Source of the DNA: Corallococcus exiguus
GTDB lineage: Bacteria > Myxococcota > Myxococcia > Myxococcales > Myxococcaceae
Length of the DNA stretch: 64,000 nt
NCBI RefSeq assembly: GCF_013248865.1
Contig: NZ_JABNNF010000018.1
Strand: one strand, 5' to 3'
Shown here piece after piece: positions 31,363 to 33,081 of this stretch (position 1 is its first letter; each line of letters starts with the position of its first letter). The position numbers were made by a program, and so were the translations under genes. The notes below the pieces were generated by a model that worked only from the letters and a program-made list of their open reading frames with translations, searched no databases and was not told the DNA's origin.

Positions 31363-33081
31363 CTACTTGTTGATGCGCACCATGGCCACGTCGTAGTGGC
31401 GCTCGGTCACGTAGCCGTTCGCGGCCTTGCCGGGGCGGTACATGTTCCCGGTCTTGTCATCCACGTAGAAGCGGTTGTTCGGGTTCGTGTCCTTGCCCGT
31501 GCTGGCGTTCTTCGTGCCCGGGTCGTGGAACGTGTAGTAGGTGCGGCCCTTGTCGTCGACGCCGCGGCCCGTGATGGTCACGAAGTGGTCCGTGAGGCCG
31601 TCCGCGTTGTAGCTCGCGTCCTTGTGGCTCACGCCCACGACCACCGGCTTGCCGGCCTCCAGCTGCTTGTCGATGTAGCTGCGGCCCTCGGCGGCCTTCT
31701 TCGAGTCCACGTTGAGCGCGCCGACGCCGTTCTCGCTCTTGCCCACCTGGATGCGGCGGTCCGGGCCCAGCACGGTCGCGCCGGAGTCACGCGCCATCGC
31801 CGTCGCGGCCTTGAAGCACGCCGTGTCGCTCGCGGTGTAGCCGTGGCCGTTCTCGAACTGGCTGTAGTACGGCACCTTCACGTGCACCGCCGGCTTGTCC
31901 TTGGACGGGGCCACCTGCTCCGTGTTCGCGGGGGCCGCCTCCGTGGTGGGCTTGGAGGTGTTCGTGCCCTGCGTCGTGGGCTTGCCTTCCGTGGTGCCCG
32001 GCTTCGAGCCGTTGTTCACGGACGGGGGAACCACGCCCGTGTTGGTGTTGGCCGGCTTCGTCGTGGTGCCCGACTTCTCCTGCTTCAGCATCGCGAGGGC
32101 GTCCTTCGCCTCCGACTTGAAGCGGTTGGCCACGCCCTTCTGCACGTCCTTGGAGCTGCCGGAGAAGTGCACCAGGGTGCCGCTGGCGTTGGTGCGGCCG
32201 CGCTCGGCGTAGATGTCCTTGATGAGCTGCTCGTCGCTCACCTTCGCGGGGTCGCGACCGTTGAGCGCCTTCTTGAAGATGTCGTCCGCCTTGCCCGGGC
32301 CGTGCTGCACGGAGGTGGACCAGGCCACGTCCCGCAGCGCCGCGGAGCGCTTGTCCAGGTCGATGCCCGTCGCCTTCTTGATGTTGGCGGCGCCCGCGTC
32401 GTAGTGCGTGGTCTTGATGTAGTCGTGCTGCGCCTTGTCGAAGCCCTTCGGGTCCTTCGCGGCCAGCTGCTTCCACGCGGCGGAGAACTCCGCGGTGCCC
32501 GGCTTGCTGCCCGACAGCGCCTTGTGGAAGTCCGGGTTCGTCTTCTTCAGCGAGTTGACGAACGACTGCGCGGACCCGTTCGCGGAGGCGAACTGGTAGG
32601 AGCCGTAGGACACGCCGCCCTTGTCACCCTTGCCCGTGGACACGGTGCCGGGGCCGCGCGCCTCGTACTTGCGGCTCAGCCCGCCCAGCTCCCCGTTGGT
32701 CGCGCTGCTGGAGTTCGTGTTCGCGGCGGGCGTGGTCGCCTTCGCGCCGTCCGTGGACTGCGTGAAGCTGTCGCCCGACGTCTTCGTCCCCGCGCTCGAC
32801 TTGTTGGTGCCCTTCGTGTCGAAACCGTCCTGCACCTTCAGCGTCTGGCCGGCCAGGATCTTGTTCGGATCCTTGATGTTGTTCGCCTTGGCCAGCGCGT
32901 CAACAGTCGTGTTGTAGCGCTTCGCGAGGCCGGAAAGCGTATCGCCGGAATTGACGCGGATGTTGGAGACGGTCACGGAGAAGACCCCTCTATGTCTGGC
33001 CGCGACCAAAGGCGCCGCGGACGTGCTTGGATTGATCGGATTATCGAAAGGCAATGCGATCAGTTTCGCATTCCCAGCCAC
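31363..33081 (-). CDS. Secreted multi-domain protein: LysM, an unassigned central domain, and a C-terminal C39-like cysteine-peptidase domain
   Basis: LysM '[43 protein letters not shown]'. C-terminal '[24 protein letters not shown]...DHFVTITG' (Cys/His). Lys- and Asn-rich composition. Confidence 0.55.

Follow-up and report, generated by a model that had tools for sequence, protein, structure and literature searches.

Several toxins delivered via a type VI secretion system (T6SS) attack peptidoglycan with modules that recur in the gene described here. Acinetobacter baumannii Tae17 is a T6SS cargo effector in which an Ig-like domain, a LysM domain, a lytic transglycosylase, and a cysteine amidase are connected through flexible linkers; toxicity draws on both activities, and the LysM-containing N-terminus binds VgrG17 (PMC11796386). 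Tse4 is a further bifunctional peptidoglycan-hydrolase T6SS effector, as cited in the same paper (PMC11796386). The C-terminal domain of VgrG3 (VgrG3-C), a glycoside hydrolase that acts on peptidoglycan, has catalytic residues like those of chitosanases and lysozymes (PMC12663445, PMC6099711), and BtaeB is the subject of Li et al. (2025, Cell Host Microbe 33:1901), as cited in PMC13402684. In Myxococcus xanthus, TsxE and TsxI (MXAN_5572 and MXAN_5571) form a T6SS effector-immunity pair involved in sibling antagonism, and TsxE carries a LysM domain (PMC5801462). Here we analyze a 64,000-nucleotide stretch of Corallococcus exiguus contig NZ_JABNNF010000018.1, referred to below as the window, in which a gene at 31363-33081 encodes, from N- to C-terminus, a LysM domain, a linker, a VgrG3-C-like glycoside hydrolase, a second linker, and a cysteine peptidase resembling the C-terminal domain of BtaeB (BtaeB-CTD).

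We read the product as an orphan, leaderless, bifunctional peptidoglycan-degrading effector that is paired with an immunity partner and delivered in one step by a contact-dependent machine, most likely a T6SS, and we put the probability of this reading at about 0.55. In a preliminary description made from the sequence alone, the gene had been proposed to encode a lysin or effector by which a predatory myxobacterium targets the cell wall of its prey, which agrees with our finding that both catalytic domains are peptidoglycan-hydrolase modules and that the host is C. exiguus (99% identity).

The Corallococcus effector resembles Tae17 in being leaderless and bifunctional and in the order of its parts, with a LysM region followed by a glycan-cleaving domain and then a cysteine-dependent peptidase or amidase domain, all separated by flexible linkers. 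Tae17 alone has an additional N-terminal Ig-like domain, which binds VgrG17 together with the LysM domain, and its gene adjoins vgrG17, whereas the Corallococcus gene is an orphan and its product lacks an Ig-like domain. The glycan domain of Tae17 is a lytic transglycosylase and that of the Corallococcus effector is VgrG3-C-like; the likeness is one of layout. Vibrio cholerae VgrG3-C (structures 4NOO and 4NSO; immunity protein TsiV3/TsaB) is homologous to the central domain, with the Glu and Asp of its 'KYE' and 'GD' motifs invariant, and its target, the glycan strands of periplasmic peptidoglycan, is a further point of likeness. In VgrG3 this domain is fused to a VgrG spike, making a 'specialized' effector, whereas in Corallococcus it belongs to a free protein, with a LysM domain before it and a second enzyme after it. 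Bacteroides fragilis BtaeB (Bfe7), whose C-terminal domain is known with its immunity protein BtaiB (9JDD, 9JG8/9JG9), has its catalytic Cys and His in common with the Corallococcus C-terminal domain, but the acidic residue of the triad is Glu in BtaeB and Asp in the Corallococcus effector. BtaeB is a 617-aa protein without a LysM or VgrG3-C domain, its N-terminal part has no significant similarity to the Corallococcus effector, and it is loaded via the adaptor BtapC within a Bacteroidota T6SS locus, unlike anything in the part of the window that we scanned for such genes. TsxE and TsxI offer a myxobacterial parallel, a LysM-bearing and presumably cell-wall-targeting effector with an uncharacterized immunity protein, but TsxE has an amidohydrolase-2 domain instead, and its gene lies directly downstream of vgrG2 with the immunity gene in the same orientation.

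Gene structure and domains

The interval 31363-33081 is an unbroken open reading frame (ORF) of 572 codons on the minus strand. The GC content at third codon positions (GC3) is 0.95 in this frame, in a window of 69% GC, which supports that the minus-strand frame is truly coding; the plus-strand frame over the same interval is antisense and merely rich in Arg, Ala, Gly, and Val, and we rejected it. The preliminary description had correctly recognized the 572-aa ORF, leaving its strand unstated, but the protein itself almost certainly starts at GTG 32976 and is 537 aa long. In an alignment of 21 homologues, those of 20 other species or strains all have their N-terminus at this codon (MTVSN... 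in the window; M-T/S-V-S-N... among the homologues), an agreement that holds for all sequences outside C. exiguus. The codon is ATG in five of seven Corallococcus sequences, the window being counted among the seven, and a Shine-Dalgarno-like sequence precedes it. Since these three lines of evidence agree on 32976, we preferred it over the maximal 572-aa start and a 548-aa start. The remaining 5' extension falls inside the conserved divergent intergenic region and is probably untranslated leader or promoter DNA.

The features of the gene are as follows, with residues numbered in the 537-aa protein.

31363..32976, minus strand: effector coding sequence, 537 aa plus stop (stop codon 31363-31365), from the ORF, GC3, homologue N-termini, and ribosome-binding site
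32977..33081, minus strand: 5' extension of 35 codons, missing from every homologue outside C. exiguus and not signal-peptide-like
32985..32990, minus strand: Shine-Dalgarno-like GAGGGG, 8 nt upstream of GTG 32976, from direct reading of the sequence
32833..32958, minus strand: LysM peptidoglycan-binding domain, aa 7-48 (aa 42-83 of the 572-aa ORF), Pfam PF01476
32692..32820, minus strand: linker 1, aa 53-95, low-complexity and rich in Thr, Ser, Gly, Lys, and Asn, from alignment and composition
32110..32688, minus strand: VgrG3-C-like (chitosanase/lysozyme-fold) peptidoglycan glycoside hydrolase domain, aa 97-289, from PF21277 and 4NOO/4NSO
32662-32664, minus strand: candidate catalytic Glu105
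32623-32625, minus strand: candidate catalytic Asp118
31882..32100, minus strand: linker 2, aa 293-365, rich in Thr, Pro, Asn, Gly, and Lys, from alignment and composition
31366..31881, minus strand: papain-fold cysteine peptidase/amidase domain (BtaeB-CTD-like, 'C39-like'), aa 366-537
31816-31818, minus strand: candidate catalytic Cys387, with Gln373 as a further candidate catalytic residue
31585-31587, minus strand: candidate catalytic His464
31522-31524, minus strand: candidate catalytic Asp485

The presence of two peptidoglycan-hydrolase domains is well supported by profile and structure matches. The central region, previously left unassigned, matches the Pfam family PF21277 (T6SS_VgrG3-like_C) over essentially the full model (positions 1-182 of 183; E 3.6e-53; 180.7 bits against a cutoff of 27) as well as the VgrG3-C structures 4NOO and 4NSO (4NOO_A, E 1.4e-29). 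In the alignment, Glu105 (in 'RKYEA') and Asp118 (in 'GKGDKGG') correspond to the E and D in the VgrG3 motifs 'SEKYES...GNGDYGG', which we take to be the catalytic pair E827/D842 in VgrG3 numbering, and both are kept in 112 of 112 aligned homologues. The pair has the arrangement seen in lysozyme-like chitosanases, with a Glu in 'KYE' followed about 13 residues on by an Asp in 'GD'. We considered whether the protein could itself be a VgrG spike and rejected this: it has no VgrG, Phage_GPD, or gp5 Pfam domain, its N-terminus is a LysM domain, and homologue names such as 'VgrG-related protein' reflect the toxin domain only.

The C-terminal domain had been called C39-like on the strength of the motifs 'VPYYSQ...TACFKAA...DHFVTITG'. 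These do mark a real, conserved Cys/His domain, but it is not a true C39 peptidase, and its closest known structure is 9JDD, entitled 'type VI secretion system effector-immunity complex BtaeB CTD-BtaiB from Bacteroides fragilis'. By sequence the domain matches 9JDD and 9JG8/9JG9 (E 1.6e-21), with the Cys motif (ACFKA against ACYKA) and the His motif (TDHFV against TDHFI) aligned. An AlphaFold2 model of the domain built from 28 sequences has a pLDDT of 92, and 9JDD is its sole significant PDB match by Foldseek (E 2e-14). On these sequence and Foldseek matches, the domain is a member of the BtaeB-CTD family and has a papain fold of clan CA; 'C39-like' is a loose label for it. Gln373, Cys387, His464, and Asp485 are each kept in 96-99% of 219 family members, gaps excluded, and Cys387 is the sole cysteine of the whole effector. 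We rejected membership of the C39 family since Pfam gave nothing useful for the domain (BtrH_N at E 0.15), PF13529 (Peptidase_C39_2) and PF03412 have no match in the effector even at E ≤ 1, and the fold is not closest to C39 domains, which rank no higher than staphopain, cathepsin L, or AvrRpt2. PF13529 is only faint in some homologues (21.8 bits, sub-threshold, in P0175), and the hallmarks of C39 peptidases, an ABC-transporter fusion or a bacteriocin context, were not found for this domain.

A profile search of 1.84 billion representative proteins recovered 1,706 relatives of the C-terminal domain at E ≤ 1e-3 and 1,069 at E ≤ 1e-10, about 1,700 clusters at 50% identity; despite this size, the family has no dedicated Pfam model. 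Longer members are fused to Amidase_2, PG_binding_1, or VgrG3-C, and another fusion combines the domain with VanY/Peptidase_M15_4 plus SH3, two LysM domains, and Hydrolase_2. One case has an eCIS_core (DUF4157) N-terminus ahead of the domain, and some N-termini were read by eye as WXG100-like, both for the cysteine domain (P0069, P0077) and for the VgrG3-C domain (P0073, P0078, P0079). The constant fusion to peptidoglycan-binding and -cleaving modules points to the peptide moiety of peptidoglycan as the substrate, and the varied delivery-type N-termini argue for a portable toxin module; that the BtaeB-type domain may be an amidase is suggested by the name of BtaeB.

The N-terminal LysM domain, which the preliminary description had also seen, is unambiguous (PF01476; E 2.4e-15; 56.7 bits against a gathering cutoff of 20.9) and matches LysM chains in the PDB. 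Linker 1 varies in length among homologues and holds a second LysM domain in some genera, and linker 2 varies in length and shows internal duplications between species. The protein is, as first noted, rich in Lys (10.2%), Asn (6.3%), and Thr (9.9%), and it is strongly basic (pI 9.55); Lys makes up 0.2-4.4% in five of seven neighboring proteins, 8.6% in valyl-tRNA synthetase (ValRS), and 7.6% in the divergent neighbor.

The divergent partner gene

The effector gene is monocistronic, converging on a biopterin-dependent hydroxylase gene and diverging from a conserved gene that the preliminary description had missed.

33170..34204, plus strand: partner gene, divergent from the effector gene, encoding a 344-aa exported all-β protein with a signal peptide and eight cysteines

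The signal peptide is of typical type I, with predicted cleavage after ...PDASA, and the eight cysteines are conserved; both are consistent with a periplasmic location. An AlphaFold2 model (pLDDT 81) shows three all-β lobes, with residues 1-31 disordered. Searches of Pfam and PHROG found no family for the protein, and Foldseek searches of the PDB with the model gave only low-TM, high-rmsd, or single-lobe matches to lipocalin-like and SH3-like folds. The partner family consists of only 20 clusters, and every named member is myxobacterial.

Orthologues of the effector occur across Corallococcus, Pyxidicoccus, Myxococcus, Cystobacter, Archangium, and Stigmatella, and the gene is syntenic across Corallococcus species. 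A scan seeded with the partner, using one genome per species, gave 11 further loci, ten of them with an adjacent divergent three-domain effector and one (L011) with an orphan partner; adding L001, L002, L016, and L015 makes 15 loci. In 13 of these 15, from Corallococcus, Pyxidicoccus, Cystobacter, and Archangium, the partner adjoins the effector gene divergently while the other flanking genes differ, and the partner orthologues at paired loci are 45-93% identical. Cystobacter ferrugineus and Archangium violaceum, for example, have the same divergent partner (45-51% identity) among different flanking genes. The orphan copies are at L011 and L015 (Hyalangium, N-half only). Effector-immunity pairs typically form a conserved module of two genes, with the partner in the target compartment and with occasional orphans, and from these features we infer that the partner is a candidate periplasmic immunity protein for the effector; if so, it represents a new immunity family. 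Assigning the two catalytic domains to individual lobes of the partner from single-domain relatives was uninformative: P0162 is an orphan, the P0050 locus has no partner homologue, and P0122 lies beside a full pair.

Export, delivery, and competing explanations

The preliminary description had called the protein secreted, yet we found no Sec, Tat, or lipoprotein signal either in the 35-codon extension or at the N-terminus of the 537-aa protein, where MTVSNIRV... runs straight into the LysM domain from about residue 5. This is a property of the family. The LysM domain begins at residue 2-8 in most LysM-led members, and in a scan of the first 40 residues of 142 homologues, the maximum hydropathy over 10 residues was at most about 1.5 in 139; the others were P0087 (1.6), P0108 (1.76), and P0130 (2.31), of which only P0130 has a hydrophobic, signal-peptide-like N-terminus. 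The earlier account had counted a missing secretion signal against its own proposal; the signal is indeed missing, which we read instead as the mark of a leaderless effector exported by a specialized route, like T6SS effectors. Without a Sec or Tat signal, the effector must exit by a one-step specialized route, and the combination of a leaderless enzyme with a periplasmic partner points to one-step contact-dependent delivery into neighboring cells. We consider the T6SS the most likely single route, with the effector as orphan cargo, although at somewhat below even odds; it is favored because both toxin domains are of T6SS pedigree, a LysM domain is also found in the M. xanthus effector TsxE, and the layout of Tae17 is nearly identical.

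In the mechanism that we propose, the effector would be injected into the periplasm of neighboring prey or non-kin cells, where the LysM domain would tether it to glycan strands. The VgrG3-C-like domain would hydrolyze the sugar backbone via Glu105 and Asp118, and the papain-fold domain would use Gln373, Cys387, His464, and Asp485 to cut the MurNAc-L-Ala amide or else a stem or cross-link peptide bond. The long flexible linkers would let both enzymes act on one patch of wall, and cutting the peptidoglycan mesh in both directions would lead to rapid lysis. The Sec-exported, disulfide-rich, all-β partner would bind either or both of the catalytic domains and thereby shield the producing cell and its kin.

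Several observations weigh against this reading. Our Pfam scan of the window took in 31 ORFs, not every ORF, and among these there are no T6SS genes (vgrG, hcp, PAAR, or the adaptors DUF4123, DUF1795, and DUF2169), nor are there any among the genes listed at the inspected homologous loci L001, L002, and L016. Pfam also finds none of the delivery domains MIX, FIX, PAAR, Rhs-type, or DUF4150 in the effector. The partner gene is divergent rather than co-transcribed downstream, 344 aa is large for an immunity protein, and the partner model resembles neither TsiV3 (4NOO) nor BtaiB (9JDD chain B) nor any other immunity protein among Foldseek matches in the PDB. Homologues of about 300 aa with the LysM and VgrG3-C-like domains are plentiful in Acidobacteria-like metagenome contigs, among housekeeping neighbors and with no partner gene, so some family members need not be effector-immunity pairs. 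Finally, a leaderless LysM-GH19 protein of Corallococcus silvisoli has been described as extracellular, with predicted non-classical secretion (PMC10875029), which makes simple release a live alternative.

The strongest competing explanation, which we find doubtful, builds on such release. The protein would be a public-good bacteriolytic enzyme that exits via outer-membrane vesicles, lysis of a subpopulation, or another exporter and digests the exposed peptidoglycan of Gram-positive or pre-damaged prey, and the partner would either guard the periplasm against leaked enzyme or be a secreted protein that is co-regulated but otherwise unrelated. The lack of secretion-system genes among the scanned ORFs fits this explanation (the preliminary description had suggested looking for such an association, and we did not find one), as do the leaderless LysM-VgrG3C homologues in housekeeping contexts of other phyla and the C. 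silvisoli protein; a pI of 9.55 and a LysM anchor would suit binding to exposed wall, and M. xanthus LysM proteins and genes are upregulated during predation (PMC9548883, PMC10849154). However, an enzyme outside the cell has no access to the periplasm of its producer, so a dedicated, linked periplasmic partner would be unnecessary, yet the partner is kept at 13 of the 15 loci. For both catalytic domains, the closest characterized relatives are T6SS toxins delivered on contact, and both are also found with delivery N-termini of WXG100-like or eCIS type, which again favors contact-dependent delivery over release.

It is improbable, in our assessment, that the effector belongs to a contact-dependent machine other than the T6SS, namely the Tad-like Kil system or the prey-killing system related to the type III secretion system (T3SS*), with the LysM region as its recognition element. 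We know of no lytic effectors identified for the Kil and T3SS* systems, and a leaderless, orphan effector with no T6SS linkage could be one, all the more as leaderless hydrolases with an N-terminal LysM domain form a whole class in myxobacteria (this family, P0068, LysM-C39L, and LysM-GH19). Type VII secretion, extracellular contractile injection system (eCIS), Tad, T3SS, and phage genes were all absent from the 31 scanned ORFs. However, both toxin domains have a T6SS pedigree, the LysM-bearing myxobacterial effector TsxE is a T6SS substrate, and a need for immunity implies delivery into kin, which in M. xanthus is documented for the T6SS.

A broader version of this idea is somewhat less far-fetched, although still unlikely, and is drawn by analogy with Tae17-VgrG17. 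Leaderless, LysM-first hydrolases may be the substrate class of the myxobacterial contact-dependent killer, whether a T6SS or the Tad-like Kil/T3SS* machinery, with the LysM N-terminus doubling as a loading signal; they would then be the lytic effectors that dissolve prey walls. Members may include the present LysM-VgrG3C-Cys peptidase family, an M. xanthus LysM-X-Cys peptidase, LysM-Cys peptidase proteins, and LysM-GH19. The 344-aa neighbor would in that case found a family of multi-lobed immunity proteins and perhaps neutralize both enzymes at once.

Least probable of all is an endolysin-like autolysin acting on the producer during developmental lysis, sporulation, or germination, or a domesticated phage lysin, held back in the cytoplasm until the membrane is damaged or a holin-like event occurs: a leaderless binding domain with two enzymatic domains recalls phage endolysins, jumbo phages of Erwinia and Dickeya have VgrG3C-like domains at 34-42% identity, and there are LysM and weak C-terminal PHROG endolysin matches, but the scanned ORFs include no phage, holin, or integrase gene, no phage record covers at least 80% of the effector (only its VgrG3C-like and LysM parts match phages), the gene is syntenic across Corallococcus species, and a periplasmic partner makes little sense for an enzyme stored in the cytoplasm. 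A prophage or phage endolysin origin was likewise rejected, given the chromosomal housekeeping and signaling context and phage matches at the level of domains only.

Neighboring genes, related variants, and significance

The divergent intergenic region contains a further element.

33110..33145, no strand assigned: 36-bp near-perfect palindrome CTTCAGTTTCAGCGGATC/GATCCGCTGAGACTGAAG, 24 nt upstream of the partner ATG

Its 18-nt arms are 94% complementary, with an RNA fold z-score of -3.6, and its sequence is conserved over seven Corallococcus sequences, among which we found one-sided (wobble) changes only and no compensatory pairs; the palindrome could be an operator or a 5'-UTR hairpin. A scan for sigma-70 promoters and terminators around the effector gene gave nothing exceeding shuffled background.

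The Pfam-scanned genes of the window include a chemosensory (che) cluster, ValRS, GroEL, an M1 peptidase, a LysR regulator, the biopterin-dependent hydroxylase, and a homologue of the major vault protein. The last (36865-39141, minus strand) lies about 4 kb from the effector gene and encodes a 758-aa homologue of the eukaryotic protein, unusual in a bacterium, with Pfam matches to MVP_shoulder (E 9e-45), Vault_2 (1e-31), and Vault (6e-31) as well as Vault_3 and Vault_4. At the C-terminus of ValRS (41435-44965, minus strand), a tail of about 115 aa (aa 1060-1173) in which Lys, Ala, and Pro abound matches histone-H1-like HC2 and extensin-like profiles. The chemosensory cluster (5175-13062, plus strand) includes a CheA-CheW fusion, CheB, and a receptor (7462-10065) that combines a bacterial globin, a PAS domain, and an MCP signaling domain, and is thus a globin-coupled sensor. 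A 551-aa, very acidic (pI 4.6) and nearly Lys-free protein without a Pfam match is encoded at 34201-35856 on the minus strand; this ORF as listed overlaps an HmuY-like gene (35781-36779, minus strand), and the two are not kept beside the effector gene in other genera. A possible encapsulin-associated ferritin is encoded at 48633-49301 (minus strand); this protein of 222 aa has EncFtn-like and rubrerythrin-like matches.

Related loci show several rearrangements of the same modules. Some Corallococcus strains have an additional, tandem LysM-Cys peptidase paralogue; at L016 (Corallococcus sp., CP114039; 3190-6943) the gene for P0122, a protein with only the LysM and cysteine peptidase domains, is inserted together with an Exo_endo_phos gene between the effector and biopterin hydroxylase genes, and the site behaves as a hotspot at which lysin modules vary. 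At L018 (M. xanthus, CP068048; 5001-6623), P0068 retains the LysM and cysteine peptidase ends, a different domain of about 200 aa without a Pfam match replaces VgrG3-C in the middle, and the partner gene is lacking. Other lineages swap the domain order (P0054-P0060). VgrG3-C-like domains also occur, at 34-42% identity, in jumbo phages of Erwinia, Dickeya, and Yersinia (records H1-H15), for example in Erwinia phage vB_EamM_Yoloswag (KY448244.1, 90495-91136), under annotations that vary between endolysin, VgrG-like protein, and tail protein. The VgrG3-C module is common to T6SS spikes and phage lysins.

Each of the three effector domains was already known, as were bifunctional peptidoglycan-hydrolase T6SS effectors such as Tae17 and Tse4. 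What is new is the fusion of LysM, VgrG3-C, and BtaeB-CTD and its orphan, leaderless, LysM-first organization in predatory myxobacteria, together with the recognition of the BtaeB-type domain as a large, widely recombined family and of a conserved all-β partner family. The BtaeB-type domain is spread over scaffolds that include LysM, PG_binding_1, WXG100-like, and eCIS-marker N-termini as well as amidase and carboxypeptidase fusions. The partner family was previously undescribed and could represent a dual-specificity immunity protein. As a basic, LysM-targeted lysin with two activities, the effector is also a candidate enzybiotic or biocontrol enzyme. To our knowledge, the proteins that dissolve the prey wall in contact-killing myxobacteria are largely unidentified, and this locus, with two toxin domains in one chain whose closest characterized relatives are T6SS toxins of Vibrio and Bacteroides, provides a concrete candidate for such a protein.

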